A stretch of DNA of 64,000 nt from an uncultured Spirochaetota bacterium (GTDB taxonomy: Bacteria; Spirochaetota; Spirochaetia; SZUA-6; Fen-1364), in contig CAVUXE010000037.1 of NCBI GenBank assembly GCA_963745235.1, positions 128,001 to 192,000 on the forward strand. The letters run 5' to 3'. Position 1 is the stretch's first letter, and each line of letters begins with the position of its first letter. Under the pieces are notes generated by a model. It saw nothing but the letters and a program-made list of their open reading frames with translations, was not told the origin of the DNA and did not search any database. Positions 9,414 to 39,036 of the stretch are shown in pieces. The translations under genes and the position numbers were made by a program.

Positions 9414-9417
9414 TCCG

Positions 9418-10209
9418 ATGACCGCGGCCGCCAGGAAAGACGCGGAGATAGTCCTGGAGACGGTCCGTCTTACCAAAGCCTTCGGAGGGCTGACTGCCGT
9501 TGATGCCCTGGACCTGCGCGTCCATCGGGGGGAAATCTCCAGCCTCATCGGTCCCAACGGCGCCGGGAAAACGACGGTCTTCAACGTCGTCACCGGCATC
9601 TACCGGCCCGAAAGAGGCAGCGTCTTCTTCCAGGGAGAGAACATTACGGGCAGGAAGCCGCACCGGATCGTGGAGCGGGGAATAGCGCGCACGTTCCAGA
9701 ACATCCGCCTGTTCCCGAACCTCACCTGCCTGGAGAACGTCATGGCCGGCCGGCATGCGCGGATGCGAAGCGGCCTTGCCGGCGCCCTGTTTCACCCGCG
9801 CACGCAGGTCGCGGAGGAGAGGGAGACGCGTCGAGCCGCGGAAGAGCGGCTGGCCCAGGTGGGATTGGGTGAGTCCCGCAACGAGCTTGCGCGCAACATC
9901 GCCTACGGCCGGCAACGGATGCTGGAGATTGCGCGCGCGCTGGCCACCTCACCGCGCCTGGTCGTCCTGGACGAGCCGTCCAGCGGGCTGAACCCCCGCG
10001 AGACAGAGGATCTGATGGTGTTCATCAGGAAGATCATCAGGGACGAGCGCCTGACCATACTTCTCATCGAGCACGACATGAACGTCGTGATGGGCATCTC
10101 GGACTGGGTCACCGTGATGGACGGGGGACGCAAAATCGCTGAAGGACATCCCCGGCAGATCTACCATGATCCCCGCGTCATCGAGGCATACCTGGGCGGA
10201 GGGACCTGA
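9418..10209 (+). CDS. livG: Branched-chain amino acid ABC transporter ATP-binding protein
   Basis: Walker A GPNGAGKTT, 'GIARTFQNIRLF', 'LDEP', 'IEHDM', C-terminal 'VIEAYLG'. Confidence 0.94.
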   Translation: MTAAARKDAEIVLETVRLTKAFGGLTAVDALDLRVHRGEISSLIGPNGAGKTTVFNVVTGIYRPERGSVFFQGENITGRKPHRIVERGIARTFQNIRLFPNLTCLENVMAGRHARMRSGLAGALFHPRTQVAEERETRRAAEERLAQVGLGESRNELARNIAYGRQRMLEIARALATSPRLVVLDEPSSGLNPRETEDLMVFIRKIIRDERLTILLIEHDMNVVMGISDWVTVMDGGRKIAEGHPRQIYHDPRVIEAYLGGGT

Positions 10210-23763: not shown

Positions 23764-24543
23764 ATGAGAATACGAAACGAGAACGAGTTTCCCATCGGGT
23801 ACACGGAGATCGGCGCCCATCGGGCGGAGACGCTCATGGATTTCGGCATCCTGCGCCTCGCGGCGGGGCAGGCCCATCGCTCCAGACCGGGGAAAGAAAG
23901 GGCATTCATCCTCCTGGGCGGCCAGGTGGAGCTGGCCTGGGAGGGACAAAAAGTCCGCGCTTCCCGTGAATCCCTGTTCGATCAGTCTCCCTGGTGTCTC
24001 AGCCTTCCGTCGAACGTCGAAGCGACAATCAGCGCAATTGGCGGGGAGGCTGAGATCTCCGTTCACGCGACGCAGAACCCGCGCCCGTTTCCCGCGCACC
24101 TCTACACGCCGGAAGAGTGCAGGAGCGAAGAACGCGGAAAAGGGACAATGAAGGAAACCTCCACGAGGATCGTCCGTACCATCATCGAGGACCCGCGCGC
24201 TTCATTCTCCAATCTCGTTCTCGGGGAGGTGATCACCTTCCCCGGCAAGTGGTCCAGCTACCCTCCGCATCACCACCCGCAGCCGGAGATCTACCACTAC
24301 AGGTTCCAGCAGCCAGGCGGCTTTGGTCTCTGCCAGATCGGCGAAGAGGCCTACCTGCTTCGAAACCGTGACACCGTCATCATTCCCCCGGGGGCGGTGC
24401 ATCCCCATGCCGCGGCGCCCGGCTATGCGATGTTCTATATCTGGGTGATACGGCACCTGGACGGCGCCCGCTACGGGACGCCCACTTTCGTCCCCGAGCA
24501 TTCCTGGGTCATGGACCCGAAAGCAAAGATCTGGGGCCCCTGA
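23764..24543 (+). CDS. iolB: 5-deoxy-glucuronate isomerase
   Basis: KduI/IolB cupin motif 'GKWSSYPPHHHPQPEIYHY'; 'ERGKG...RIVR'; inositol cluster context. Confidence 0.9.
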   Translation: MRIRNENEFPIGYTEIGAHRAETLMDFGILRLAAGQAHRSRPGKERAFILLGGQVELAWEGQKVRASRESLFDQSPWCLSLPSNVEATISAIGGEAEISVHATQNPRPFPAHLYTPEECRSEERGKGTMKETSTRIVRTIIEDPRASFSNLVLGEVITFPGKWSSYPPHHHPQPEIYHYRFQQPGGFGLCQIGEEAYLLRNRDTVIIPPGAVHPHAAAPGYAMFYIWVIRHLDGARYGTPTFVPEHSWVMDPKAKIWGP

Positions 24544-24634
24544 GGATCGGTTTCAGCAAGGCCTCGCGGGGCGCCCGCCGCTGGCGCGGGGTGCTGGCGT
24601 CGCACGCCCCCGAAGCCGTTCATTCAGGAAGGCT

Positions 24635-26159
24635 TCAGATCATCCCGTCCCAGCTGTTGCGGACCCGGGCCTCCCGCGCTTCCTTCTCCGAGAACCAGTG
24701 CGAGGTGACGCTCTTCAGCTCCGTGTAGAAGCGCACCCCGTCGGTGCCCATGGTGTGGAGGTCTCCGAAGAAGGATGCCTTGTGCCCCGTGAAGCCGAAC
24801 ATCGCCAGGGGAACAGGGATCCCGACGTTCACACCCACCATCCCGGCATGTGACCTGCGTGGTGAACTCCCGGGCGTAGTAGCCGTTCTGCGTGTAGATG
24901 ACGCTCCCGTTTCCGAACTCGCTCTCGTTCATCAGCTCCACGCCCTCGTCGAAGCTCGAAACGCGCTTGATGCAGAGCACCGGCCCGAAGATCTCCCGGT
25001 CCCCGACGCTCATGCCCTTCTTCACGTGATCGAAGAGCGTGGGGCCGAGGTAGAAGCCCTTCTCGTAGCCGGGCACCACGACATCCCGGCCGTCCAGGAC
25101 CATCTGGGCGCCTTCCTGGATACCCTTCTCGATCCAGGAGACGACGCTCGCGCGGTGCTCGGCGTTCACAAGCGGACCGAGCTGGCTCGTCTTGTCGTAT
25201 GCCGGCCCGATCTTGAGCCCCTCCATGACCTTGACGAGCGCTTCGATGAGCTGGTCCGCGACTGCCTCTTCCACCACGGCAACCGGCAGCGCCATGCACC
25301 GCTCCCCGGCGCATCCGCAGGCGGAGTTCACGATGCCCTTCGCGGTGCGCTCCAGGGGGGCATCGCTCATGACCAGCGCGTGGTTCTTTGCCTCGGTCAG
25401 GGCCTGCACCCGCTTGCCGTTGGCGGCCGCGGTGGCATAGATGTGCTTCCCGACGGAGGTGGAGCCGACGAACGAGATTCCTACCACGTCGGGATGGGTC
25501 AGCAGTATCTCGGCCTCCGCCCGCGAACAGGTGACGAGGTTCAGAACGCCCGGGGGAAGCCCTGCTTCCTGCCACAGCTCCATGATGCGCATGGAGGAGC
25601 GCGGGACAAAGCTCGCGGCCTTGAGCACCATGGTGTTGCCCGTCGCTATGCACAGCGGCGCCATCCAACCCATGGGGATCATCGCGGGGAAGTTCCACGG
25701 GGAGATCCCCGCGAACACGCCCAGGGGCTCCAGGTATTGCGTCGTGTCGTACCCGGGGGTGGCGTTCATGATTGCGGGCCCCTTGATGAGATGCGGGACT
25801 CCGGCCGCGTACTCCACCACTTCAATCACCTTGAGCACGTCCCCCATGGCCTCGTCCCAGACCTTGCCGTGCTCCTCGGCTACCAGGTGCGTGAGCTCAT
25901 CCACGTGGCGGTCCAGGATGCTCTTCATCCGAAACAGAACCTGCGCCCTCTTGTTCGGCGGCATGTCCGCCCAGGCGGGGAAAGCAGCCTTTGCCGCGGC
26001 AATTGCAGCCCGGACCTCCTCCGCAGTGCACTGCGGAGTGCGCGCAACGACCTCCCCGATGGAAGGATCGTAGCAGTCCATGTAATGGTCGGTCTTCGAG
26101 GTCTTCCACTCTCCGCCGACCCAGTATTTCAATTTCTTCGGCTCGACAGCTGTTATCAT
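24635..26159 (-). CDS. iolA: CoA-acylating (methyl)malonate-semialdehyde dehydrogenase, frameshifted near 24855
   Basis: 'PWNFPAMIP', 'SFVGST', 'AKNH', 'GCAGERCMA', 'EIFGPVL'; C-terminus '[12 protein letters not shown]...[13 protein letters not shown]' in ORF 24635-24841. Confidence 0.92.
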
Positions 26160-26202
26160 GTCGATCCTCCTTGCATTCATTCAGCCGGGCGCCAGCCAGG
26201 CG

Positions 26203-27288
26203 TCAGCCCTCCGGCAGCATGGCGTCCCTCATGAGGGCCGCCAGGTCCTCCGTGGCTTTGCAGAACTGCCGCAGCGTGCGCACCGACGCGCCGTACAGGT
26301 CGAACTGGTCCGGCCGCATGCCGTCCTCCTGGTAGGCCCGCGCGAAGTCAGGGAACTTTTTCAGCAGCTCTCCGACGATGACGGGGTCCACGGGAGTCCC
26401 GATGCGGCTCTCCACGGAAACGTCAGACGCGTTGAAACGCTTCTGCCACTCGTAGGGAGGGGAGATGACAACGTCTCCGCCGATGAGCTCGGACCAGTGA
26501 AGATGATTACGAAAGGCGGCGGAGAGGAGCCGCAGCCTGTAGCCTCGCTCCTGGTAGATCCCGTACGCCTTCTTGAAAACTGCGACTCCCGCCCAGTCCA
26601 GCACCGCCGGGTCGGCAATGATTCCTTTCCTCTCCGCGAGGGCTTTCAGCCAGTCATCGAGCCGTCCCACCATGAGGGTGCAGACCGGGCCCATGCGGCT
26701 CGTATCCTTGCCCTCCTTTTCCCGGCGTTTCAGTCCGCGCTCCACCGCCTCCGCTACCGCAATTGCCTGCGGCAGCGTGAAGCTCACCGTCGCGTTGACG
26801 CTGATCCCCCGGTAGGTGGCTTCCTCGATGGCCGCAACACCCGCGTGCGTGACGGGGATCTTCGTGATGATGTTGGGCGCCATGGCGTTGAATCGCTCAG
26901 CCTGCTCGACGATGGCCCGCGCGTTGCGGTACAGCCGCGGGTCAGTCTGGACGGAGAGTCTGCCGTTTCTTCCATTCTCCCGGTGAAAGATCGGCTCGAG
27001 GAGCTTTGCGGCCTTGATTGACATCTCCTCCACCAGGCGCCAGGCAACTTCGTCCTCTGTGGCCGCCGGCATCTCGGCGATGATTGCCGGGATCCGGTCC
27101 TTCCACAGGTGCAGCTCCTTTTTCAGAACGCCCAGGACGATGACCGGGTTGGCCGTGGCGCCCACGGCGCCATTCTGACTGATGGAAGAGGAAAGCTCTT
27201 CGATAGAGCAGGAGTCGTTCCACAGGGCTGTCGGGGTGGTGGATGTCATCTGGCGCAACAGCGTGGTTGTGACGGCTTGTGTCGGCAT
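26203..27288 (-). CDS. Transaldolase-family protein (paralog 1)
   Basis: 'LWNDS', 'GATANP', Schiff-base lysine 'NIITKIP', 'NATVSF', 'VGRLDD', 'AAFRN'. Confidence 0.9.
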   Translation of the reverse strand: MPTQAVTTTLLRQMTSTTPTALWNDSCSIEELSSSISQNGAVGATANPVIVLGVLKKELHLWKDRIPAIIAEMPAATEDEVAWRLVEEMSIKAAKLLEPIFHRENGRNGRLSVQTDPRLYRNARAIVEQAERFNAMAPNIITKIPVTHAGVAAIEEATYRGISVNATVSFTLPQAIAVAEAVERGLKRREKEGKDTSRMGPVCTLMVGRLDDWLKALAERKGIIADPAVLDWAGVAVFKKAYGIYQERGYRLRLLSAAFRNHLHWSELIGGDVVISPPYEWQKRFNASDVSVESRIGTPVDPVIVGELLKKFPDFARAYQEDGMRPDQFDLYGASVRTLRQFCKATEDLAALMRDAMLPEG

Positions 27289-27362
27289 AGGCGGGCCCAC
27301 GGAGTGGTAGAAAAAATATACTCATGGCTGTATGCTGGGGCAAAAGAAATGGGAGGTCGCCC

Positions 27363-28202
27363 ATGATCGAAAGACGTCGATTTGCCCTGAACAGGATAAC
27401 ATGCCCGTCACTCGGACTGGAGGATTTCTTTCGGTTCGCCGCGGAGCTCGGCATCTCCCGAGTCGAGCTGCGAAACGACCTCGCCGGCGGCCAGGTCACG
27501 GACAACCTTTCCCCGTCGCGAGCCGCGGCGCTGGCAAAGGCGAGCGGGGTTCAGATCATCACCATCAACGCCCTGCAGAAGTTCAACCTGACATCCGCCC
27601 GGCAGAAGGCGGCCGGCGAGCTGGAGAAGCTGCTCGACCTTGCTGAGGAACTGCGCTGCCCGGCGCTCGTCCTGTGCCCCAACAACGACACCGCTGACGC
27701 GAGGGACGCAAAGACACGGGTCGCGGAAGCGGTGGACGCCTTGAAAGCGTTCGGACCGTCGTTCATGAAGAAGGGAATCCTGGGGTACGTGGAGCCGCTC
27801 GGGTTTCACGAGTCGTCCCTGGCTTCTCTCATCGTCGCCGTGGAGACGATCAAGAGCTCGGGCTTCAGCTGCTACCGCACGGTGTACGACACTTTCCATC
27901 ACTACCTGGGACCGGACACGGAGAATGACATCGGCCCGCACTACGAGGTCACCAACACGGGCCTCATCCACGTCTCAGGCGTCGAGGCGGACATACCCAA
28001 GGAGAAGTATCGGGATGAGCATCGCGTTCTTCCCGGCCCGAAAGACCGCACTTTCTGCAGGGAGCAGGTTGCCCACCATGACCGCCTGGGCTACACCGGG
28101 GACATCTCTTTTGAGCCTTTCTCCGCGGAGGTTCAGCGCATGGGACGCGCGGACCTTGCCGCTGCCCTGAGAAAGAGCATGGAGTACCTGCAGGGGAGCT
28201 AG
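27363..28202 (+). CDS. iolI: Xylose-isomerase-like TIM barrel protein, probable inosose isomerase (IolI-like)
   Basis: 'FALNRI', 'VELRND', 'INALQKFN', 'VEPLGF', 'DTFHH', 'DEHRVL', 'SFEPFS'; inositol cluster context. Confidence 0.78.
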   Translation: MIERRRFALNRITCPSLGLEDFFRFAAELGISRVELRNDLAGGQVTDNLSPSRAAALAKASGVQIITINALQKFNLTSARQKAAGELEKLLDLAEELRCPALVLCPNNDTADARDAKTRVAEAVDALKAFGPSFMKKGILGYVEPLGFHESSLASLIVAVETIKSSGFSCYRTVYDTFHHYLGPDTENDIGPHYEVTNTGLIHVSGVEADIPKEKYRDEHRVLPGPKDRTFCREQVAHHDRLGYTGDISFEPFSAEVQRMGRADLAAALRKSMEYLQGS

Positions 28203-29213
28203 GCTTCGCTTCTCGACGTTCTTCCGCACGTCGATGGTCACGGCCACGACGATGATGATGGCGCGCGCCACCTGCTGGAAGTCCGCGGAGACGTTCAGGA
28301 TGTCCAGGCCGTTCTTCATGACGCCGATGATGAGGGCGCCGATGAGCGTGCCTCCCGCGCTTCCCAACCCTCCCGCAAGGCTCGTGCCCCCGATGACCGA
28401 CGCGGCAATGGCATCCAGCTCGTAGCCCAGGCCGAGGCCCGGCTGGCCGGAGCCGATGCGCGCGGTCAGAACGATGGCGGCAACGGCTGCGAGAAAGCCC
28501 GCGTACGTGTAGACCAGGATGAGGTAGCGGTTCGTCTTGATCCCCGAAACCACCGCCGCCTGCAGGTTGCTGCCCAGCGCATACGTGTAGCGGCCCCACA
28601 AGGTGTGCTGGAGTATCACGTAGGTGATCACCACGCAGACAATGAGCACGATTGCCGGGTTGGGGATGCCCAGGATGTCTCCCTGACCGATGACCTGGAA
28701 GGAGTCGATGAGACTTCCGCGGGGGCGGCCCTGCGAATAGATGAAGGCCCACCCGCGGGCGAAGGTCATCATGCCGAGGGTGGCGATGAACGGCGGGATC
28801 TTCAGCCAGGCGATCATGCTGCCGTTGACGAACCCGATGGCAACTCCGACTCCCAGACCGATAAGGACCACGGGAACAATCGGCCAGGGGTGCCCGCCCT
28901 TGTACAGCCGGTCCATGGCGTCCGCGCTCTGCACGAGGCTTGCCACTGCCACCGCGACAGCGGCCACCACCGCGCCGGAGGAAAGGTCGATCCCCGCGGT
29001 GATGATGCACATGGTGACGCCCAGGGCGATGATCCCGATGACGCTGATCTGGCGCAGCACGTTCAGGAGGTTGTTGATCCGCAGGAAGATTCCGCCGGAA
29101 AGGATTGCGATCACGATGCACAGCCCCACGAGGATCAGCAGGATGCTGTACTTGCTCATGAGCGCAAGAACGCGGGATTCCCTTCGGGGAGCAATCTTGA
29201 CGGCTTCAATCAC
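28199..29213 (-). CDS. Ribose/inositol-type ABC transporter permease (stop probably displaced by an indel near 28210)
   Basis: 'GIDLSSG', 'IPPFIATLGM', 'YELDAIAASVIGGTSL.GG.G'. The ORF as read runs 227 nt into iolI, but family similarity ends at 'IDVRKN' next to an off-frame TAG at 28199-28201. Confidence 0.88.
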
Positions 29214-29233
29214 GGCGTGCCTCCGGTCCGACC

Positions 29234-30756
29234 CTAATAGTAGTGCACTTCCTTGAACGTGCTGAGCGGCTCTCCGGTTGCCATGTGGAGGATCTTCTCC
29301 TGCGTGGCCTCCGCCCGGCTGATCTCTCCGACCTTCCGCCCTTCGTGCATGACCATGATCCTGTCCGACATGGCCAGGATCTCCGGCATCTCGGATGAGA
29401 TGAGGATGATTGCCTTCCCCTCCCTGGCAAGGTTGGACATGATCTTGTAGATCTCGCTCTTTGTGGCCACATCGATGCCCCGGGTTGGCTCATCCATGAT
29501 CAGGAGGGCCGGCACCGTGGCGAGCCAGCGCGACACGAGGACCTTCTGCTGGTTGCCGCCGCTCAGGAACATCACCAGCTGGTCCAGGCTGGGAGTCTTG
29601 ATCCGCAGCGACCCGACGGCGTCGTCGCAGAGCTTGCGAAGCGCGCGATGCTTGAGAAACAGGGCTGCTCAGGTTGTTGCGCAGGCTGGGCATGATGATG
29701 TTGTCCCGCACGGAAAGGTTCAGGTACAGCCCGCTCCTCTTCCTGTCCTCCGTCAGGAACGCCATCCCGTGCCGGATGGCGTCGAAGGGGGTGTCGATGC
29801 TCACCTGCTTCCCGCGGATCCTGATCGTCCCCGCCTGCCGGGGCGAGACGCCGAAGACTGACTCCATGACCTCGGTCCTTCCCGCGCCGATCAGGCCGGC
29901 CACCCCGAGGATCTCTCCTTCTCTCACGGAAAAGCTGATGTCGTGGAAGTAGCCGCGCCGGGTGAGCCCCTCCACCTCGAGGACCGGCTTGCCGACCTCC
30001 GCCTTTTCCTTCTGGAAGAACTGGTCGATGGTGCGGCCCACCATCATCTTGATGAGCTTTTCGCGGGTGAGGTTGACGCTGTCCTCATGACCCACGAACT
30101 CCCCGTCGCGGTAGACGCTTACCTCGTCGGTGATCGCGAACACCTCATCCATCTTGTGCGTGATGTAGATGACCGCCACGCCGCGGCTCTTCAGGTCCTT
30201 GATGATGGTGAACAGGTGTCCTACTTCTTTTTCCGTCAGGGCGGAGGTGGGCTCATCCATGATGATGAGATCCGCCTTCCGGGAGACCGCCTCCGCGATC
30301 TCCACCAGCTGCATCTGGGCAACGCTCAGCCTGCCCATGATCTGGCGCGGCTTGAGATTGATCTTCAGCTCTTTCAGGATCTCTTCCGAGGCCTTGTCGA
30401 TGGCCCGGTGATCGATCAGCCCCAGGCGGTTCTTCATCTCCCGGCCCAGGAAGATGTTCTGCGCCACGGTCATGTACGGGAGCGGGCTCATCTCCTGGTG
30501 GATCATGGAGATGCCCTTGGTGAGGGAATCATGGACGCTCTCAAAGGTCGACCGGCCGCCCGCGCAGCGTGATGGTGCCCGAGTCCGGCCTGTACAAGCC
30601 GATGGCAACCTTCATGAGGGTGGACTTGCCCGCCCCGTTTTCGCCCATGACGCCGTGCACCGTGCCCGGGCGGACATGGAGCTGCACTCCGTTCAGGGCG
30701 TGCACGCCGGGGAAACTTTTGTGGATGCCTTCCATCTCCAGGATGAACTCGCTCAC
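29234..30756 (-). CDS. Sugar ABC transporter ATP-binding protein (RbsA/MglA-like, two ABC domains), frameshifted near 30545 and 29600-29660
   Basis: 'KSFPGVHAL...[12 protein letters not shown]' (ORF 30541), 'MDEPTSAL...TEDRK' (ORF 29490), 'LSGGNQQKV...DEPTRGIDV' (ORF 29234). Confidence 0.88.
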
Positions 30757-30787
30757 GGCGTGCCCGCTCCTTGTCCAGGAAGTCGCG

Positions 30788-30824
30788 AAAGAAAACCAGG
30801 GGCCGGGCTTCCGCCCGACCCCTG
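30788..30824 (-). terminator. Stem-loop plus U-tract after the inositol substrate-binding gene
   Basis: Minus strand CAGGGGTCGGGC-GGAA-GCCCGGCCCCTG followed by GTTTTCTTT. Confidence 0.7.
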
Positions 30825-30836
30825 CCGCAGTCTGCC

Positions 30837-31765
30837 CTACTTCATGTACTTCTTGTAGTTGTCGTACGTCACTGGCTCGAACGGGATCGCCGTGAAGACC
30901 GGGACGTTTTGCGTGATTGATCAGCTTCAACGCCGTCTGGACGGCGCCGCGGCCCTGTGCTCCGCCGTTCTGGAACACGGTCATGTCCAGTCTCTTGTCC
31001 GCGATGAACTTCAAGCGCGTCCGAGGTGGCGTCAACGCCCGTGACAACCACCTTGTTCTTCATGCCCTTCTCTTCGAGGACCAGCACCGCGCCGAGGGCC
31101 ATCTCGTCATTGTTGCGCGATGATGGCGTCGATCTTCACGTCGCCGGCCAGCCAGTTCTCTACCACGGTGACTGCGTCAGGCCGCTGGAAGTTCGCGGTC
31201 TGCTCCCGCACGACCTTCATGCCGGGGTACTTCGCAAGCACGTCCTTGCTGCCCTGCGTGCGGCCGATCTGCGGCGCGCTTCCCATGGTTCCCATCAGGA
31301 TGGCGACATTTCCCTTGCCGTCGCAGCTTCTTGGCCACGAACTCGCCTTCCAGGTTGCCTGCCACCACCTCGGGGGAAGCGACGGCGACGGCCTTTCCGG
31401 GAACGAGGGCCGAATCATCCGGCTTGCGGTTGAAATACACCAGGGGGATGTTCGCTGCCAGGCATTCCTTGGTGATGGTTGGCGCAAGGGTCTGGTCAAT
31501 GACGTGGATGAGAATGGCATCCACACCCTGCGTGATGAAGTTCTCAACCTGCTTGAGCTGCTCGTTCGGGTCCCGTTTCCCGTCGGCTGCGACGACGTCG
31601 ACGTTGTCTCTTCGTCGCCTCGGCGGTCAGCTGGTCGAGCGCATAGCGCATGAACACGTCATTGAAGTCTTCGATGGTGACGCCCATCTTCAACTTCGGG
31701 GCGGCCGTCGCGATGAGCGGCGCTGCCATCAGAGCCACCAGCGCAAACACAAGGATCTTCCGCAT
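30837..31765 (-). pseudogene. Sugar (probably inositol) ABC transporter substrate-binding protein, RbsB-like, broken by several frameshifts (likely sequencing errors)
   Basis: Consecutive fragments: 'MRKILVFALVALMAAPL...EDFNDVF', 'VDAILIHVID...PLVYFNR', 'GKGNVAILMG...GMKVVREQTANFQR', 'MALGAV...VVVTGVDAT', '[15 protein letters not shown]', ending KKYMK*. Confidence 0.8.
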
Positions 31766-31799
31766 ACGCACCTCCTTGAGAGATTTTTCGCGTTTGCAA

Positions 31800-31813
31800 T
31801 GCAAACGCTTGCA
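31800..31813. promoter_or_regulatory. LacI-type operator upstream of the inositol ABC genes
   Basis: TGCAAACGCTTGCA, one mismatch from the perfect palindrome at 38933-38946; minus-strand TTGACA lies at 31884-31889. Confidence 0.65.
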
Positions 31814-31899
31814 TAATGGGGCTTTAAAAAGCGGAAATACTTCCGCATGGTGAACCAATAATAAAACCGTTCCCATAGACAGTTGTCAAGCAAAAACTG

Positions 31900-32992
31900 G
31901 AGCCACTTATCCGGATTCGGGATCATCTGGTCCCGGATCAGCACCACCAGGTCGTCGACTGCCTTGCAGAACTGCCGCAGGGTCCTGCGGGTCGCCCCGT
32001 AGTCATCGAACTCCTCGGCCGTCATGCCCTTCTCGTCGTATGCGCGGCGGAAGTCCTCGAACTTCCGCTCCAGCTCCTCCAGGATCTTCGGATCCACCGG
32101 GGCGTCCATGCGGCTTCCACCGTCGACGTCGGAAGCGTTGAACCGCTTCTGCCACTCGAACGGGGGGGAAATCACGACGTCTCCGCCGATGAACTCGCTC
32201 CAGTGCAGGTGGTTGCGGAACGCCGCGGACAGGAGGCGCAGCCGGTAGCCGCGCTCCCGGTAGATTGCGTAGGCCTTCTTCATCACGGCAACCCCCGCCC
32301 AGTCGAAGATCCGCGGATCTGCGATGATGCCCTGCTTCTCCGCCACGACCTTCAGCCAGTCGTCGAGCCGGCCCACCATCAGCGTGCACACCGGCCCCAT
32401 GCGGCTGATGTCCTTCCTTTCTTTCTCCCGACGGTTCAGTCCCCGCTCCACGGCCTCCGCCACCGCAATTGCCTGCGGAAGCGTGAAGCTCACCGTGGCG
32501 TTGATGCTGATGCCCCGCTACGTGGCCTCCTCGATGGCCTGCAATCCCCGCGCGTGTGGCCGGGATCTTCACGATCATGTTGGGGGCAAGGGAGTCGAAG
32601 TGCTCCGCCTGCGCGGCAATTGCCGCGGCGTCCCGATAGAGCCGCGGATCCGTCTGAATGGAGAGCCGGCCGTTCCTTCCTTTTTCCCGATCGAAGACCG
32701 GCTTCAGCAGCTCCGCCGCCTTCAGCGACATCTCCTCCACGAGGCGCCAGGCCACCTCTCCCTCCGTGGCGCATGCCATTTCAGTGATGAGCTCGCCGAT
32801 CCTGTCCTTCCACTGGTTCCACTCCTTTTTCAGCACGGCGAGCACGATCACCGGGTTGCAGGTCGCGCCGACCGTGCCGTTGTCCTGGATCGAAGCCCCC
32901 AGCTCCTGCAGCGAGCAGGAGTCGTTCCAGAGCACGGACGGGGTGGTCCGGGTCATGAGGTGCAAAGGTGTTTCGTTCTGGTTGTTGCTCAT
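31900..32992 (-). CDS. Transaldolase-family protein (paralog 2), frameshifted near 32520-32545; 3' end approximate
   Basis: N-half 'LWNDSC...GATCNP...LSIQTDPRL...NMIVKIP' (ORF 32003-32992); C-half 'VCTLMVGRLDD...AAFRNHLHWSE' (ORF 31729-32493); clearly paralogous to 26203-27288. Confidence 0.87.
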
Positions 32993-33035: not shown

Positions 33036-33929
33036 TCACAGCCCGGCTTTCTCCCGGATGAACGCGCGGGCCTTGACCGCGTACTCGAACGGGTTCGCCT
33101 TGGCCGGATCCTGCTCAGCTTCCACGACGTACCAGCCCCGGTAGCCCTTCCTGTCGAGCAGGCGGAAAACCGGCTCGAAGTTCACGCCGCCATCCCCGGG
33201 GACCGTGAAGACTCCCTCCTTCACCGCGCGCAGGAAGCTCATGCGCTCCTTCTTCACCCGCTCGAGCACCGGCAGGCGCACGTCCTTCAAGTGCACGTGC
33301 CGCACGCGCCCGACGTGACGCTCCAGCACGGCAACATAGTCCTCACCCGAGAAGGCAAGGTGGCCTGAGTCATACAGGAGAGAGAGAAGAGAGGGATCCG
33401 TCATTTCCATCAGCCGGTCGACCTCCGCAGCGGTCTGTACCCCGGTTCCCATGTGGTGATGGTAGGTCAGGGTCATATCCTTCTCACGCGCCCGCTCCCC
33501 GAGCCTGTTCAGCCCCTCCGCGAGCCGCTTCCATTCCTCGTCAGTGAAGCGGGGCTTGCCCTCAAGCACGGGGACGTCCTGCATGCCCTGGATGGAATGG
33601 CCCTGTTCCGCGGCGCCAATGACGCGAGCGCCCACGGCGCAGAGAAAATCACGGTGCAGGAGAAATGCCTTCTCGACTTCCTCGTAGGGCCGGGTGGTGA
33701 GGAAGGAGCTGAACCAGGCGTTGCAGATGGTGAGCCCTCGCAGGTCCAGATAGTGCTTGAGCACCGCGGGGTCCCGGGGATACTTGTTGCCCACCTCGCT
33801 TCCTTCGTAGCCGGCGAGGGCCATTTCGGAGATGCACTGCTCGAAGGTGTTGCCGCCCCCGAGCTCAGGCAGGTCATCGTTGGTCCAGGCAATCGGAGCG
33901 ATTGCAAGGCGCACTCTCCTGTCTTTCAT
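33036..33929 (-). CDS. iolE: myo-inosose-2 dehydratase
   Basis: 'IAPIAWTNDDLPELGG', 'YHHHMGT', 'HVHLKD', 'FTVPGDG', 'VEAEQDP'. Confidence 0.96.
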   Translation of the reverse strand: MKDRRVRLAIAPIAWTNDDLPELGGGNTFEQCISEMALAGYEGSEVGNKYPRDPAVLKHYLDLRGLTICNAWFSSFLTTRPYEEVEKAFLLHRDFLCAVGARVIGAAEQGHSIQGMQDVPVLEGKPRFTDEEWKRLAEGLNRLGERAREKDMTLTYHHHMGTGVQTAAEVDRLMEMTDPSLLSLLYDSGHLAFSGEDYVAVLERHVGRVRHVHLKDVRLPVLERVKKERMSFLRAVKEGVFTVPGDGGVNFEPVFRLLDRKGYRGWYVVEAEQDPAKANPFEYAVKARAFIREKAGL

Positions 33930-33951: not shown

Positions 33952-35817
33952 CTAGAACTTCCTGGCAGATTCGACTTCCCGCCCGATCTTCTTCGCCGCC
34001 TCCACTACTTTCGGGTTCTCGGAGACCTGCGCCGTTCCGACGCGCCACCACGACTCGTAGTCGTGCGTCATTGACTTCTGGGTCACCTTCACGTCGATCA
34101 CGGTGGAGACCGCGCCCGCCATGGCGTTTTTCACCGCGTCGCCGAACTCCGCAAGCGACTTCGGCGAGTACCCGCGGGCCCCGTAGCTTTCCCCGTTCTT
34201 CGCGAAGTCCAGGGGCATCAGGCTGCCGGTGAGCCTGCCTGTTTTCGGATCTCTCCGCCGGAGGTCGTTTCCGAACTTCACGACGCCCTGGCTGGTCTGG
34301 AGGTTGTCGATGCACTGGTAGCCGGCGTTGTCGAAGACGACGACGTGGATCTTGATTCCTTCCTGGATGGCCGTCAAGAGCTCGGAATGCAGCATCACGT
34401 ACGAGCCGTCCCCGACCAGGGCAAACACCTCCCGATGAGGCGCGGCCATCCGCGCGCCGACTGCCGCCGCTATCTCGTACCCCATGCAGGAAAAGCCGTA
34501 TTCCATATGGTAGGAGTCAGGCTCGCGGGAACGCCATACCCGCTGCAGATCGCCCGGAAGGCTCCCGGAGGCCCCCACCACAATGGCGTCCCGGGGCAGG
34601 AGCTTCTCGTTCAGCTCGCCGAGGAGCCTCACCTGGGAGAGCCCCGCCGGATCTTCCTCCGAGTACAGCCTGTCCTCTTCCTTTCGCCACTCCGCGCGGA
34701 TCTTTTCCACCTCGCCTTTCCAGCCGGCTTTCCACCCGGCAGAGCGCAACGCCTGCGTCAGCGCCTTCAGGCTTTCCCGGGCGTCGGCTACGACCGTAGT
34801 CGCGTTCATCTTGGCGGCATCAAAGGAGCTCACGTTGATCGTGAGGATGACGGAGCTCGGGTTCTTGAACAGGTTGCGGGAACCGGTCGTGAAATCGCCC
34901 AGCCGGGTCCCCACGGCAATGACCAGGTCCGCTTCATGGGCAATGCGGTTGGCGGCAAGCCCGCCGGTGACTCCCACGCCGCCCAGGTTGAACGGTTCCT
35001 CCCACGATATGACCCCTTTGCCCGCCTGCGTCTCGCCCATGGGCACGCCGAATGCGGCGCAGAAATCCGAAAGCTCTCTGCCCGCCTCGGAGTAGCGGAC
35101 CCCCCCGCCGCAGATGACGAGTGGTCGGGACCGGGACTTTACCAGCGCGACTGCCCGCTCGATCTGCCCCTTTGTCGGCAGGCGTCGCTCCACGTGATGG
35201 ACCCGCTTCTCCAGGAACTCCACGGGGTAGTCATACGGCTCCCCCTGAACGTCCTGGGGCAGGGCAAGCGTCACGGGACCTGTTTCCGCCGGGTCAGTCA
35301 GCACCCGCATGGCGTTGATGCATGCGGCCATGAGCTGTTCCGGCCTGTTGATCCTGTCCCAGTACCGCGAGACGGCGCGAAAAGCGTCGTTTGCCGTGGC
35401 CGTGTAGTCGTCCCATTGCTCCACCTGCTGGAGAACCGGATCCGGTTGCCGGCAGGCGAATACGTCCCCGGGCAGGAGAAGCACCGGGATTCGATTGACC
35501 AGGGCAACTCCGGCCGCTGTCACCATGTTGAGCGCCCCGGGTCCGATTGAGCTGGTCACGGCGAAGATCTGCTTCCTGTTCATCTGCTTCGCGTAGCCGA
35601 TGGCCATGTGGGCCGCGCCCTGCTCGTTGTGTCCCTGGAAATAGGTCAGGCCGTGGTTCCCCTGGGCAAGCGCTTCACCAAAGCCCACAACGTTGCCGTG
35701 CCCGAATATCCCGCCCACGCCCTTCACGAACTTCGTCTCGACCCCGTCGAACTCCGCATACTGCGCGTCGAGGAAGCGCAGGAGCGCCTGGGCCATTGTC
35801 AGCCGGAGAGTCTTCAT
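33952..35817 (-). CDS. iolD: 3D-(3,5/4)-trihydroxycyclohexane-1,2-dione acylhydrolase (ThDP-dependent)
   Basis: 'RLTMAQAL', 'IFGHGNV', 'TSSIGPG', 'PDPVLQQ', 'EYGFSCMGYE', 'VGDGSY'. Confidence 0.96.
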   Translation of the reverse strand: MKTLRLTMAQALLRFLDAQYAEFDGVETKFVKGVGGIFGHGNVVGFGEALAQGNHGLTYFQGHNEQGAAHMAIGYAKQMNRKQIFAVTSSIGPGALNMVTAAGVALVNRIPVLLLPGDVFACRQPDPVLQQVEQWDDYTATANDAFRAVSRYWDRINRPEQLMAACINAMRVLTDPAETGPVTLALPQDVQGEPYDYPVEFLEKRVHHVERRLPTKGQIERAVALVKSRSRPLVICGGGVRYSEAGRELSDFCAAFGVPMGETQAGKGVISWEEPFNLGGVGVTGGLAANRIAHEADLVIAVGTRLGDFTTGSRNLFKNPSSVILTINVSSFDAAKMNATTVVADARESLKALTQALRSAGWKAGWKGEVEKIRAEWRKEEDRLYSEEDPAGLSQVRLLGELNEKLLPRDAIVVGASGSLPGDLQRVWRSREPDSYHMEYGFSCMGYEIAAAVGARMAAPHREVFALVGDGSYVMLHSELLTAIQEGIKIHVVVFDNAGYQCIDNLQTSQGVVKFGNDLRRRDPKTGRLTGSLMPLDFAKNGESYGARGYSPKSLAEFGDAVKNAMAGAVSTVIDVKVTQKSMTHDYESWWRVGTAQVSENPKVVEAAKKIGREVESARKF

Positions 35818-35829
35818 GACCGCCTCCCG

Positions 35830-36837
35830 TCAAACGTCCACTTCGGAAATATTCACCGGGCGGCCTTCGGCCAGGGACTTCTTTGCGGCGAATCCCATGA
35901 GCAGCGGTTTCAGGCCGTCAATGTCACCCACGGGGCATGGTTTCCCGTCAATTACCATGTCGAAGAACGCGTTCATTTCGTCCAGGAAAGCCTGGTGATA
36001 GCGCTCCAGGAAGAAGTACAGCGGCTTGTCACCAGCCACCCCGATTTCGTTGGAGAGGACCACCGAGGTCGGAGTGTCGTTGGCGCAGGAAAGCGCCCCC
36101 TTGGACCCGAAGACCTCCACGCGCTGGTCATAGCCGTACGTTGCCTTGCGCGAGTTGTCGATCACGCCGATGCAGCCGTTCTGGAACGTGATCGTCACCA
36201 CGGCGGTGTCCACGTCTCCGGCCTTTCCAATGGCGGGATCCACGAGCACCGCGCCCTTGGCGTAGACCTCGACCGCATCGGATCCGGCCAGGTAGCGTGC
36301 CATGTCGAAGTCGTGAATGGTCATATCCAGGAAGATCCCGCCTGAGACTTTCACGTATTCGGGAGAAGGGGGAGCGGGGTCCCGAGAGGTGATGCGAAGG
36401 ATGTGCGGTTCCCCAATGGCACCCTGGTTGACGAGGTCTCGGACCCGGCGGAAATTGTGATCGAACCTCCGGTTGAACCCGACCTGGAGCGTCACCCCGG
36501 CTTTTTTCGCCGCGGCGAGCGCCTTCTTCACTTTCGCCACCGTGAGGTCCACGGGCTTCTCGCAGAAGATGTGCTTCCCCTTTTCAGCCGCCGCAATGAC
36601 CATATCCGCGTGCGTGTCGGTGGAGCTGCAGACCAGGACCGCTTTTATCTCGGGGTCCGCCAGCAGGTCGTGAGCGTCGCTACTCACCCGGGAAACGCCG
36701 AGCCCCTTCGCCCAATCACGCACCGTGTCAGCCGCCACGTCCGCGATGCGGGAAATCTGCGCGCGCGGGATGTGATGCGCAATGTTTTCCGCGTGGATCT
36801 TTCCGATCCTCCCCGCCCCGATCAGTCCGATCTTCAT
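35830..36837 (-). CDS. iolG: myo-inositol 2-dehydrogenase
   Basis: 'IGAGRIGKIHA', 'FCEKP', 'GFNRRFD', 'ITSRDP', 'DMTIHDFD', 'YGYDQRVEVFG', 'FFLERY'. Confidence 0.94.
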   Translation of the reverse strand: MKIGLIGAGRIGKIHAENIAHHIPRAQISRIADVAADTVRDWAKGLGVSRVSSDAHDLLADPEIKAVLVCSSTDTHADMVIAAAEKGKHIFCEKPVDLTVAKVKKALAAAKKAGVTLQVGFNRRFDHNFRRVRDLVNQGAIGEPHILRITSRDPAPPSPEYVKVSGGIFLDMTIHDFDMARYLAGSDAVEVYAKGAVLVDPAIGKAGDVDTAVVTITFQNGCIGVIDNSRKATYGYDQRVEVFGSKGALSCANDTPTSVVLSNEIGVAGDKPLYFFLERYHQAFLDEMNAFFDMVIDGKPCPVGDIDGLKPLLMGFAAKKSLAEGRPVNISEVDV

Positions 36838-37865
36838 GTGTCTCCTCCTTGTGAAAGCCGCACGAGCTCGTCCCGGCGGAACGACTGGGTTGCGGCAAAA
36901 GCCACCCTGGTTGCCATGACTCCGTCGCGGACGCTGACCTGCGGTTTGCGTCCCTCCCGGATGCAATCCACGAACTCCTGCGTTTCCGCGCAGTACGCCG
37001 CGCCGAATCGTTCCAGGAAGTTCTGCGAGCACTCCCGCACCGCGCCCCGGTCGTCGAGGAGCTCCACCATGTCCTTCTGCGGAACGCTGGCGATCCGCAG
37101 CGCCGCCCGCGTCCCGATGATCTCCGTCTCCACGGCATACCCGTGGGCAGCGGTCCTGCCGGCGAGCAGGAAGGCCATGGCATCGTTGTCGAACCGTATG
37201 AAGGCGGCCAGGTTGTCCCCGTCACCGTACTGCGCAAACTCGGGGTGCGCGTAGCAGCCTCCGGCGGCGAAGACCGTTGTCGCCTCGGCGCCGAGCATCC
37301 ATCTGGCCAGGTCGATGTCGTGCACCGCCATGTCCAGGAACTGGCCGCCGGAGGACGGCGCAAAGCGGATGGCACCGTCGATGGCGGATTCCGGGTCAAC
37401 AGAGTAGCCTCGAAAGAGTATGGGACGGCCGATATACCCGTCCTGGATCAGCTTGCGGGCCCTGCTGTACGACTCATCGTAGCGGCGCATGAATCCAAGC
37501 ATGAATACCTTCCGTGGATGCTTCGCCACGGCCTCTTCCGCCAGGACGCACTCTTCCAGGCTGATGCCAAGGGGCTTCTCGCAAAAGACATGGAAGCCGG
37601 CCTCCAGGGCCTGCCCGATCTGCCGGCAGTGCTCGCCGGAGCTCGAGGCAATGAAAATGGCATCCAGGTCCCTGTTCTCCAGCATCCCCTCGAACGAGGC
37701 GTAGCCTTTCGTCACCCCCCACGTCTCCTGGGCGTGACGCACCCGGTCCGGTTCCAGCGCGCACACCGCCGCCAGCTCGGCCCCCGCCGTTCGCACCGCG
37801 ATGTTTTCAGCGTGCTTCATCCCCAGTCTGCCAAGGCCGACAATCCCGACCCGTACCTTCTTCAT
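36834..37865 (-). CDS. Gfo/Idh/MocA oxidoreductase; second inositol dehydrogenase (stereoisomer unknown)
   Basis: 'GLGRLG', 'FCEKP', 'GFMRRYD', 'DMAVHDID', 'FLERF'; ATGA-coupled to iolG. Confidence 0.88.
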   Translation of the reverse strand: MKKVRVGIVGLGRLGMKHAENIAVRTAGAELAAVCALEPDRVRHAQETWGVTKGYASFEGMLENRDLDAIFIASSSGEHCRQIGQALEAGFHVFCEKPLGISLEECVLAEEAVAKHPRKVFMLGFMRRYDESYSRARKLIQDGYIGRPILFRGYSVDPESAIDGAIRFAPSSGGQFLDMAVHDIDLARWMLGAEATTVFAAGGCYAHPEFAQYGDGDNLAAFIRFDNDAMAFLLAGRTAAHGYAVETEIIGTRAALRIASVPQKDMVELLDDRGAVRECSQNFLERFGAAYCAETQEFVDCIREGRKPQVSVRDGVMATRVAFAATQSFRRDELVRLSQGGDT

Positions 37866-37877
37866 GGAGCCTCTCAC

Positions 37878-38951
37878 TTACGATCCGCGCCCGCCCGTTG
37901 TCTCGCGGATCACCAGCTTCGGAGCCAGGAGCGTGCGCCGGGGATCACCTCGACCGCTCCCCGCCCTGCGGCCCCTGATGAGCTCCAGGAGCCGCTCGCA
38001 CGTCGCCAGGGAAAGCTCCTCCCTCGGCTGGTGGATCGTGCTGAGGGACGGTCGGACGCAGGCGGCGAGATCCGTATCGTCATATCCGATCAGGGCTATT
38101 CCCTCCGGCACGCGCAGACCGAGCCTGTTCACCGCCAGGAGAGCGCCAATGGCCATGAGGTCATTGAGGGCAAGGATGGCGTCGTACTCGCGGATCCTCC
38201 CCGCGACGCTCATCACGGCGTTGTAGCCGGACTCCATAGTCTGGTCCCCGAAGAGGAGGTCATCAGGACCGAGTGCGACCGCGGATTCCGAAAGCGCGCG
38301 CCGCGCGCCGGCAAGGCGGAGCACGAACTCACGCTCGGTGACTTTCTCCCCCGGAGTGGCGATGCACAGGATTCGCTTTTTCCCGAGCGAGCAGAGGTAC
38401 CGCGCCGCGATGTATCCTCCATACTCGTTGTCCGGGTAGATGATGTCCACGTCGGGCGGGCAGAGGTCCGGCGGCGGATAATGGGAGAACACAAAGGGCA
38501 TGTCCTTGGCATGGAGGTAGTCGATGAGCTCCCGCTCGAACACGGGCTGCACAATGATGAGCCCGTCCACCTTCTTGCGAGCGACAAGCTTCCTGACGTT
38601 GTTGCCGCCGGTGAAGTGGTTGTTCAGGAACGAGACAAGAAGGTCGATATCGTTGCATTCCAGGACGCTTCTCAGGGAGCTGTGCAGCGTGCCGTGATAC
38701 AGGTTCACCCCCAGCTGGTCATAGTCCGGGGGAAGAATGATTCCGATGGTTCCGACGCGTCGGGTGATGAGGCTGCGCGCGTGCGTGTTGAAGTCGAAGC
38801 CGAGCCCATCCGCGATCTCGCGGACACGTTTGCGGGTCTTCTCTGGGATCAGGGACGATTCATTCAGGCTCCTTGAAACCGTGGCCATGCTGACTCCCGC
38901 AGCTCTTGCCACGTCTCTGAGCGTGATCTCTTTGCAAACGTTTGCATCCAT
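37878..38951 (-). CDS. LacI-family regulator of the inositol cluster
   Basis: 'ITLRDVARAAGVSMATVSRSLN', 'NDLMAIG', 'IGYDD', 'LSTIHQP'. Confidence 0.93.
   Translation of the reverse strand: MDANVCKEITLRDVARAAGVSMATVSRSLNESSLIPEKTRKRVREIADGLGFDFNTHARSLITRRVGTIGIILPPDYDQLGVNLYHGTLHSSLRSVLECNDIDLLVSFLNNHFTGGNNVRKLVARKKVDGLIIVQPVFERELIDYLHAKDMPFVFSHYPPPDLCPPDVDIIYPDNEYGGYIAARYLCSLGKKRILCIATPGEKVTEREFVLRLAGARRALSESAVALGPDDLLFGDQTMESGYNAVMSVAGRIREYDAILALNDLMAIGALLAVNRLGLRVPEGIALIGYDDTDLAACVRPSLSTIHQPREELSLATCERLLELIRGRRAGSGRGDPRRTLLAPKLVIRETTGGRGS
38933..38946. promoter_or_regulatory. Perfect LacI-type operator inside the first codons of the regulator gene
   Basis: TGCAAACGTTTGCA, a 14-bp perfect palindrome. 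Confidence 0.65.
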
Positions 38952-39036
38952 TCGATCATGCAGTAAGGCATTTGTTTTCATTTGTCAAGCTCGAATCAAG
39001 TCAGCAGCGCCTCCTCCGAAGTGCCCGGAGTGACTA

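Follow-up and report, generated by a model that had tools for sequence, protein, structure and literature searches.

In the superfamily of transaldolases and fructose-6-phosphate aldolases (FSA), two active-site positions separate two kinds of enzyme: Glu together with Phe marks a transferase, Gln together with Tyr marks a lyase, and swapping the residues interconverts the activities. The water site of FSA consists of Gln59, Thr109 and Tyr131, and PMC13259622 describes how exchanging the water-organising residues interconverts the activities of FSA and TalB. A Phe to Tyr exchange makes TalB an aldolase according to PMC3962226, and the PDB titles 'Transaldolase B E96Q F178Y' (4rz6) and 'E60Q/F132Y' (4xz9) identify both positions as a recognised switch. 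The sulfofructose transaldolase SftT is described in PMC7491151 as cleaving an anionic non-phosphorylated ketose, whose C3 aldehyde is oxidised by a neighbouring aldehyde dehydrogenase and whose dihydroxyacetone unit is passed to glyceraldehyde-3-phosphate (GAP) or to erythrose-4-phosphate; in that pathway, as the same source presents it, the ketose is supplied by an isomerase acting upstream, and a sugar kinase is not required. Here we analysed a transaldolase-family gene, tal1, that lies in a myo-inositol (iol) gene cluster within a 64,000-nucleotide stretch of DNA (the window; positions 128,001 to 192,000 of contig CAVUXE010000037.1, assembly GCA_963745235.1) from an uncultured Spirochaetota bacterium. 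By alignment, its product, Tal1, is a member of a distinct, widespread clade within the superfamily. The clade carries Gln and Met at the two switch positions and Ala at a third, a pattern that marks a large, unstudied group of enzymes that probably replaces the kinase and aldolase usual in inositol catabolism. An earlier note on this DNA had pointed out the Gln/Met pair and read it as a sign of a different acid/base mechanism and a different substrate; we confirm the observation and find partial support for its interpretation.

The placement of the two residues was determined by three methods, which agreed. A phmmer search against the PDB aligned the Tal1 segment GRLSVQTDPRL to GRVSIEVDPRI of 3r5e (E 7.6e-24), and VCTLMVGRLD to VASFFVSRVD of the same entry. 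MAFFT alignment with the TalB and FsaA sequences of E. coli (NC_000913.3) equated Gln118 of Tal1 with TalB Glu96 and FSA Gln59, and Met210 with TalB Phe178 and the FSA tyrosine (Tyr131 in literature numbering). When a 46-sequence profile was compared with TalB by hhalign, Q118 and M210 fell in the same columns (probability 99.0, E 6e-18). The Gln118 codon is CAG at 26947..26949 and the Met210 codon is ATG at 26671..26673; these and all tal1 codons given below are on the minus strand. The assignment of Gln and Met to the Glu96 and Phe178 positions, originally made by eye, was thereby borne out. In these alignments E. coli TalB and FsaA conformed to the Glu/Phe and Gln/Tyr rule, and the Gln/Met pair of Tal1 matched neither pattern. 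The catalytic Glu that holds the water in classical transaldolases is Gln118 in Tal1, and the Phe of TalB position 178 is Met210; from the FSA triad, Tal1 has the Gln and the Thr, with Met210 in place of the Tyr. As aligned, Met210 offers no proton donor of the Tyr kind, and it may keep the shielding role of Phe178, being likewise non-acidic.

The remainder of the active site was compared with TalB position by position. The Schiff-base Lys, the N-terminal Asp, the TxNP motif and both anion-binding Arg, all listed as retained in the earlier note, were located at Lys147, Asp29, Thr49/Asn51, Arg213 and Arg264. In pairs, Asp29 corresponds to TalB Asp17, Asn51 (with Thr49) to Asn35, Lys147 to Lys132, Asn169 to Asn154, Thr171 to Thr156, Arg213 to Arg181 and Arg264 to Arg228, and Thr208 stands at the position of Ser176 with the hydroxyl preserved. 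The codons of Lys147 and of Asp29, a candidate general base, lie at 26860..26862 and 27214..27216. Two changes had been absent from the earlier note: TalB Leu158 is Ser173 in Tal1, and the phosphate ligand Ser226 is Ala262 (codon GCC, 26515..26517), the first Ala of 'AAFR' and the third change of the signature. The phosphate in TalB is coordinated by two Arg and one Ser, including Ser226 (PMC3962226); at this site (TalB R181, R228 and S226) Tal1 keeps both Arg (R213 and R264) and has Ala262 instead of the Ser.

Conservation of the signature was counted in a close set, the 120 best Tal1 homologues (71-96% identical), and in a distant set, the 150 best representatives of 50%-identity clusters, many of them fragments; counts cover the sequences spanning each site. 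The representative search with Tal1 gave 378 clusters at E <= 1e-30. Gln118 was present in 120/120 close homologues and 104/116 distant representatives, with Glu in 0/116. Met210 was likewise invariant in the close set (120/120) and present in 105 of 131 distant representatives, where Tyr occurred in none, Phe in 4 and Leu in 6. Ala262 occurred in 120/120 close homologues and 94/128 distant ones, with Ser in 4. Asp29 was Asp in all 120 close homologues. In the 46-sequence alignment, which was full-length and extended down to 32% identity, the invariant columns included Thr49, Gln118, Lys147 and Thr171. Judged from these alignments, the Gln/Met/Ala pattern is far beyond chance and not a local oddity, and the clade is marked by Gln, Met and Ala at the positions of Glu96, Phe178 and Ser226, respectively.

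The tal1 open reading frame is intact as assembled (26203..27300, minus strand) and from a GTG start at 27300 encodes 365 residues. The alternative ATG at 27288 matches the N-termini of homologues better and is the probable start; the earlier note had begun the gene there, and its coordinates are sound. The source is a 5.85-Mb metagenome-assembled genome, 85.7% complete, and its closest protein relatives are labelled Spirochaetia. Tal1 exceeded the cut-off of the Pfam model TAL_FSA (PF00923; 138.5 bits versus 27) and fell far under those of all NCBIfam transaldolase and FSA models, of which the best was NF002881 (121.5 bits versus 367), with talAB at 57.4 versus 396.2 and the FSA model TIGR00875 at 41.3 versus 245.95. 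An AlphaFold2 model made with the 46-sequence alignment as input (pLDDT 97.0, pTM 0.93) predicted a triosephosphate isomerase (TIM) barrel of the long transaldolase type, which Foldseek superposed on solved transaldolases. The top PDB match was the C. glutamicum transaldolase 3r5e (template modelling (TM) score 0.81, E 1.5e-19, 25% identity), followed by N. gonorrhoeae transaldolase entries (3clm; TM ~0.79-0.80), whereas TalB (1ucw) scored ~0.68-0.69 and short decameric forms ~0.47. Despite the good fold match, the closest PDB relative is just 25% identical, and phmmer and Foldseek searches against PDB chains found no solved structure belonging to the clade.

These data bear on a further explanation, in which Tal1 would be a normal transaldolase of the pentose-phosphate pathway that tolerates the substitutions and stands near inositol genes either by chance or because it balances sugar phosphates. 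Classical transaldolases (TalB, 3r5e and 3clm) do share with Tal1 the TIM barrel (TM 0.79-0.81 to the long type), the Schiff-base Lys, the Asp, the Thr/Asn and Asn/Thr residues and the two anion-binding Arg, and of twelve active-site positions of TalB, ten are either retained or replaced conservatively. However, identity to them is at most 25%, the curated models, talAB among them, stay under their cut-offs, the catalytic Glu is missing from every clade member examined (0/116), and the gene has no pentose-phosphate context; instead, its link to iol clusters without IolC and IolJ recurs across phyla, as described below. Moreover, the same genome carries two further transaldolase-family genes (on C53 and C75), both with canonical Glu, Phe and Ser, and the odd signature of Tal1 is therefore not a habit of the lineage. 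We regard this explanation as very improbable and already disfavoured.

The C75 gene encodes a short canonical Glu/Phe transaldolase domain fused to an N-terminal HAD-like phosphatase part (G000:C75; L002 1474-2658), and a sugar-isomerase gene (GmhA-like, by eye) and epimerase-like genes lie nearby. This neighbourhood suggests a role in heptose or lipopolysaccharide sugars rather than in the pentose-phosphate pathway.

The cluster around tal1 contains the genes of the inositol pathway. On the minus strand it runs from a LacI-family regulator at its edge (37878..38981) through two iolG-like GFO/IDH/MocA dehydrogenases (35830..37877), iolD, a thiamine diphosphate-dependent trihydroxycyclohexane-1,2-dione hydrolase with three TPP_enzyme domains (33952..35817), an iolE-like inosose dehydratase (33036..33929; PF01261, 92% identical to the L012 counterpart), tal2, a second Gln/Met copy (31909..32992), and a sugar ATP-binding cassette (ABC) importer comprising permease, ATPase and binding protein (27975..31876), and later to tal1 and mmsA. 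Two genes lie on the plus strand: an IolI/IolH-like TIM barrel of the xylose-isomerase fold (27324..28202; PF01261), divergent from tal1 and situated between the importer and tal1, and an iolB-like 5-deoxy-glucuronate isomerase gene convergent with mmsA (23764..24543; PF04962 196 bits; TIGR04378 111.5 bits, under the cut-off of 205). The product of this iolB gene would make the ketose 5-dehydro-2-deoxy-D-gluconate (DKG). mmsA (or iolA; 24624..26180, minus strand) encodes a CoA-acylating malonate/methylmalonate-semialdehyde dehydrogenase (TIGR01722 468 bits, over cut-off), and its ATG lies 22 bases past the tal1 stop. A Pfam scan found neither a PfkB kinase nor a class II aldolase in the iol cluster of the window. 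In the canonical pathway of the Bacillus subtilis type, IolC and IolJ occupy the place proposed here for Tal1 and convert DKG carbon into malonate semialdehyde and a triose-level unit; they are a PfkB kinase and a class II or DeoC-type aldolase, whereas Tal1 is one unrelated enzyme of the class I transaldolase fold.

We found that this arrangement recurs. Across species-representative genomes, at least 583 stretches carried relatives of Tal1 at 65-76% identity; judged by record title, the stretches belong to Spirochaetota, Bacteroidales, Acidobacteriota, Chloroflexota, Dormibacterota, Planctomycetes, Gemmatimonadetes and Chthoniobacterales. Eighty of these stretches were kept as loci for counting gene neighbourhoods; going by their titles, they span at least eight phylum-level groups. 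When window proteins were searched against the 80 loci by tblastn (E <= 1e-15, at least half of the query length), IolG matched in 41, IolD in 35, IolE in 31, MmsA in 28 and IolB in 21. A Pfam scan of 92 open reading frames from 8 loci placed iol genes beside the transaldolase gene in 5/8 loci, from four phyla; iolG, iolD and iolE-like genes were present in all five, mmsA in four and iolB, by Pfam, in three. PfkB, F_bP_aldolase and Dak were found in 0/92 of these reading frames. Similarly, the four PfkB kinases, four class II aldolases and DhaK of this genome, used as queries, matched 0/80 loci, and the positive control IolB did match. None of five genomes carrying such clusters had an IolC (TIGR04382) over the cut-off (best 117 bits versus 300), and in this genome, too, the best IolC score was under it (227.9 bits versus 300). 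The gene responsible for that score (C15:210722-211666, 228 bits) was considered as a hidden iolC and rejected; it is a lone PfkB gene between helicase and NuoF-like genes. On the contig of the window, more than 100 kb before it (C37:6046-6900, 9163-9426 and 19688-20485), a class II aldolase and PfkB-like kinases were observed, for which the IolC model gave 44-68 bits.

The relation between the transaldolase gene and IolC was also counted in 151 genomes of one acidobacterial class, 35 of them over the cut-off of the IolD model. In twenty of the 35, the IolD-like gene scores ~840 bits and neither the transaldolase gene nor IolC is present; this group, from which one genome was inspected, was set apart before the count. 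In the remaining 15 iol-type genomes, the transaldolase gene was present in 7, IolC over cut-off in 8, and both in none. In the genome inspected, the IolD-like gene of ~840 bits (L098, 9593-11530; G216:C1:4420000-4439999) stands not among iol genes but beside genes for an HpcH/HpaI aldolase, a DUF3500 protein and an ABC-2 exporter, and the curated IolD model (TIGR04377) seems to capture a paralogue of another pathway. Among 201 Spirochaetota genomes the transaldolase gene occurred in 4, this one included, a number too small for such a count in that phylum. The occurrence of the gene in iol clusters without IolC or IolJ strongly backs the earlier suggestion of a different substrate.

The chemistry of the pathway points to a particular donor. 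IolB yields DKG, whose structure, CH2OH-CO-CHOH-CHOH-CH2-COO-, equals that of fructose-6-phosphate (F6P) with the C5-C6-phosphate end swapped for a carboxymethyl group; DKG is the sole intermediate of the inositol pathway with the dihydroxyacetone-type end needed for transaldolase chemistry. On balance, and with modest confidence, we favour a reading of the sequence and gene context in which Tal1 would split unphosphorylated DKG, release malonate semialdehyde for MmsA and pass the C3 unit to GAP, replacing IolC and IolJ. Lys147 would attack the keto group at C5 of unphosphorylated DKG to form a Schiff base, the C3-C4 bond would be cleaved, and the malonate semialdehyde released would be oxidised by MmsA, the product of the next gene. 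The bound dihydroxyacetone unit would be shielded by the non-acidic Met210, and its enamine would add to GAP to give F6P, with proton transfers via Asp29 and water held by Gln118 and Thr171. A kinase would be dispensable because DKG has a free dihydroxyacetone end, which DKG-6-phosphate, the substrate of IolJ, does not; a phosphorylated C6, as in DKG-6-phosphate, would be unfit for a transaldolase donor site. Compared with the IolC/IolJ route, the proposed one would have no ATP-dependent step, and the C3 unit would leave as F6P, not as dihydroxyacetone phosphate.

In its proposed working, Tal1 comes closest to SftT (SqvA; PDB 8BC3, BmSF-TAL), for which experiments have demonstrated this mode of transfer (PMC7491151). 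As in the SftT context, the window has an isomerase (IolB) earlier in the pathway, an adjacent aldehyde dehydrogenase (MmsA) and no kinase. The two enzymes differ in type, since SftT belongs to the short transaldolase subfamily and is given in PMC7491151 as 41.7% identical to a Thermoplasma enzyme, whereas Tal1 has the long-type fold; Tal1 matched BmSF-TAL (8bc3) over 74 residues alone (111-184, E 2.2e-6) and falls outside the short SftT subfamily. They would also differ in donor, a carboxylate sugar acid for Tal1 and a sulfonate for SftT. A full-text literature search, to which subscription journals and bioRxiv supplements were outside, found no paper linking a transaldolase to inositol catabolism or DKG. 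PMC12130570 was considered as such a link and rejected, as the two terms occur in unrelated places, and for this step PMC13311982, in the part that treats it, proposes a class II aldolase on DKG-6-phosphate and not a transaldolase.

Several points weigh against the proposed route. The members of the clade are known from sequence, predicted fold and gene context alone. In DKG the carboxylate lies several bonds closer to the bond that is cleaved than the phosphate does in F6P, and it may not reach Arg213 and Arg264. Outside the cluster, this genome encodes 8 homologues of class II aldolases and numerous PfkB kinases, and a non-orthologous kinase/aldolase pair is possible. The 151 acidobacterial genomes come from one class and are related genomes rather than independent samples, and two that carry the transaldolase gene, G282 and G348, have IolC-like kinases just below the cut-off (285 and 271 bits). 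Finally, Gln at the Glu96 site is the state of FSA, an aldolase, and true transaldolases generally work poorly once this Glu is changed to Gln; an enzyme with Gln by nature must somehow make up for the loss, or else may act as a lyase.

If it were a lyase, Tal1 would act on the same donor as a true aldolase like FSA and produce malonate semialdehyde and free dihydroxyacetone, to be phosphorylated by a dihydroxyacetone kinase elsewhere in the genome. An acceptor would then be unneeded, and Ala262, in place of the phosphate-binding Ser, might reflect that phosphorylated partners are not bound. A Dak1-family DhaK is indeed encoded on C15 of this genome, so released dihydroxyacetone would be usable, which also counts against the transfer route; no DhaK, however, was found in the 80 loci. 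FsaA shares with Tal1 the Gln at the Glu96 site and the Thr holding the catalytic water (PMC13259622), yet Tyr131, which the same source names as the dominant proton shuttle of FSA, is absent from Tal1 and occurs in 0/131 clade members. FSA is also built differently, from ~220-residue subunits in a decamer, and has Leu and Ala where Tal1 has Asn169 and the hydroxyl at 208. TalB Ser176, the equivalent of T208, is presumed to contact the donor C1-OH. We favour transfer over hydrolytic release because Met210 is non-acidic and no Tyr is present, because Thr208 keeps the hydroxyl with this presumed contact, because no dihydroxyacetone kinase accompanies the transaldolase gene, and because both anion-site Arg are kept, even in homologues from operons without sign of an acid substrate. 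As aligned, the two retained Arg fit a phosphorylated acceptor. The aldolase explanation is unlikely, though it deserves consideration.

A last point against the proposed route is that homologues 68-77% identical to Tal1 also stand in kinase-free operons without iol genes, and DKG may therefore be one of several donors. An operon of Chloroflexota metagenome-assembled genomes (L010 1532-11065; L018 1119-10697; L020 726-9644) comprises a zinc-dependent alcohol dehydrogenase, a sugar ABC importer, amidohydrolase_2, cupin and DUF6282 genes and a transaldolase of the Gln/Met type, 71-77% identical to Tal1. In L053 (7052-11074) a tungsten-type aldehyde:ferredoxin oxidoreductase (AFOR_N/AFOR_C) adjoins a Gln/Met transaldolase and an ABC importer, and in L032 (2166-11056) an oxidoreductase of the same type lies ~6 kb from a Gln/Met transaldolase gene, with alcohol dehydrogenase, aldehyde dehydrogenase and other genes between; this proximity suggests an anaerobic version of the aldehyde-oxidising partner. 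An L-arabinose isomerase is encoded ~4 kb from the transaldolase gene in L014, and a pyrroloquinoline quinone dehydrogenase, ThuA and a zinc-dependent alcohol dehydrogenase near it in L044. In the non-iol operons examined, the partners that recurred were a sugar importer, a dehydrogenase or isomerase and an enzyme that oxidises aldehydes, and never a sugar kinase, which fits a general role of the clade on unphosphorylated donors. Tal1 might accordingly be a C3 transferase of the transaldolase type whose donor is another unphosphorylated ketose or keto-acid, or a generalist for which inositol is one use; the presence of two paralogues within the one cluster of the window also speaks for this. 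However, the iol link is the commonest context among the 80 loci, with IolG in about half of them, DKG alone among the pathway intermediates has the required end, tal1 is directly upstream of mmsA, and the transaldolase gene and IolC were mutually exclusive in the 15 IolD-positive genomes. We consider a donor other than DKG distinctly unlikely for Tal1 itself.

The substitution of Glu96 raises the matter of which group carries the protons, and a different acid/base mechanism in Tal1 is plausible from the alignments. Conservation analysis of the homologue alignments found no new clade-wide Glu, Asp or Tyr at the barrel strand ends, and no other Glu or Tyr at the catalytic-water site; the acid is therefore either one shared with TalB (Asp29) or an unconventional one. 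The ionisable residues at the barrel mouth of Tal1 are Asp29 and Asp120, both common to TalB. Typical of the clade are Cys31, Ser/Cys173 and a turn rich in His that follows Arg264, the equivalent of TalB Arg228 (Arg264-Asn-His266-Leu-His268, 26497..26511). TalB Asp17 has a catalytic role, and its retained counterpart Asp29 together with the water-holding Thr171 could suffice for acid/base catalysis. In the mechanism that we favour, the proton transfers would most likely be made by Asp29 and water held by Gln118 and Thr171.

The earlier note had instead offered two residues as the base, the Cys of 'VCTLM' (Cys207) and a His of 'NHLHW' (His268), and neither fared well. Cys207 is conserved in 119/120 close homologues and is Cys in 56/129 distant members, and on strand 206-210 it is predicted to face outward because it lies beside the inward T208 and M210; it is a poor candidate and unlikely to take part in the proton transfers. 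His268 is better conserved (119/120 close homologues, 82/119 distant representatives), and positions 265 and 266 are frequently His too, which together with the absence of a new clade-wide Glu, Asp or Tyr lends some weight to the idea that a clade-specific residue replaces Glu96 as acid/base, be it His268 or the substrate's own carboxylate, whatever the substrate of the enzyme. DSSP of the Tal1 model, however, shows a helix (267-270) directly after strand 257-261, with His268 four residues and one helical turn beyond Arg264. By analogy with TalB, His268 would sit at the anion/phosphate end of the pocket and more probably aids anion binding than serves the catalytic-water site. Residue 268 is, in addition, Gln, Ala or Pro in 29/119 distant members, and assistance by a substrate carboxylate would be useless for the half-reaction with GAP. 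His268 and the substrate carboxylate are live alternatives to Asp29 and water, and a replacement acid/base of this kind is, in our estimate, rather unlikely. Tentatively, and with some doubt, we also consider a third catalytic solution beside those of transaldolase and FSA: no carboxylate or phenol of the enzyme would serve the catalytic water, the strand-1 Asp would carry the protons alone or partly with the substrate carboxylate, and the site would permit unphosphorylated keto-sugar or keto-acid donors, whose C3 unit would pass to GAP.

The signature had been claimed for both paralogs of the cluster. tal2 does have both motifs, GRLSIQTDPRL and VCTLMVGR, as well as ISINATVSF and LLSAAFRNHLHW, with the Gln codon at 32654-32656 and the Met codon at 32377-32379, but this copy, on the minus strand, is broken as assembled. 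Compared with tal1 and the L012 orthologue, it carries a +1 insertion near 32538. It further has a TAG in frame at 32518-32520 (TGG in L012, TAC in tal1) and lacks a stop codon where the gene should end. Frame changes were found elsewhere in the cluster as well, one in mmsA (24855-24859), two in the ABC ATPase gene (29237-30813) and at least three in the binding-protein gene (30840-31804); the genes with frame changes are otherwise well conserved, with 80-97% identity to L012 proteins. The changes reflect either an indel-rich assembly or decay of the transporter and tal2 arm. In a search of sequencing runs with the tal2 stretch, at most 0.19 of the sampled words were found in any run. A contig from a peat sequencing run, ~96% alike, has no tal2 insertion and has TGG in place of TAG; such contigs come from relatives and not from this organism, and what this one tells is that intact tal2 versions exist in relatives, nothing more. 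A 230-base contig from a peat metatranscriptome library matched the N-terminal part of tal2 (32731-32959) with 5 differences, a hint, not proof, that close tal2 relatives are transcribed in peat. In one Spirochaetota metagenome-assembled genome (L011 CAWJSK010000021.1 and L013 CAWJSK010000012.1), at least three Gln/Met transaldolase copies were observed, two of them in an iol cluster and the third adjoining an Old-Yellow-Enzyme-type flavoprotein gene and an ABC importer.

A large natural clade with Gln and Met fits neither pattern of the textbook division and therefore provides a direct test of which residues Schiff-base chemistry and retention of the C3 unit really require. If the third catalytic solution is true, the clade would open a way into glycolysis that needs no kinase, used in at least eight phylum-level groups, with donors that would include DKG from inositol and other ketoses in the operons linked to aldehyde:ferredoxin oxidoreductases and dehydrogenases; enzymes taking unphosphorylated donors are also wanted in biocatalysis. 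If Tal1 acts on DKG as proposed, a single enzyme would do the work of both kinase and aldolase and rewrite the last steps of textbook myo-inositol catabolism across many phyla, in bacteria from soil, peat, gut and sediment. Current annotation pipelines that demand IolC and IolJ would then label such genomes inositol-negative.

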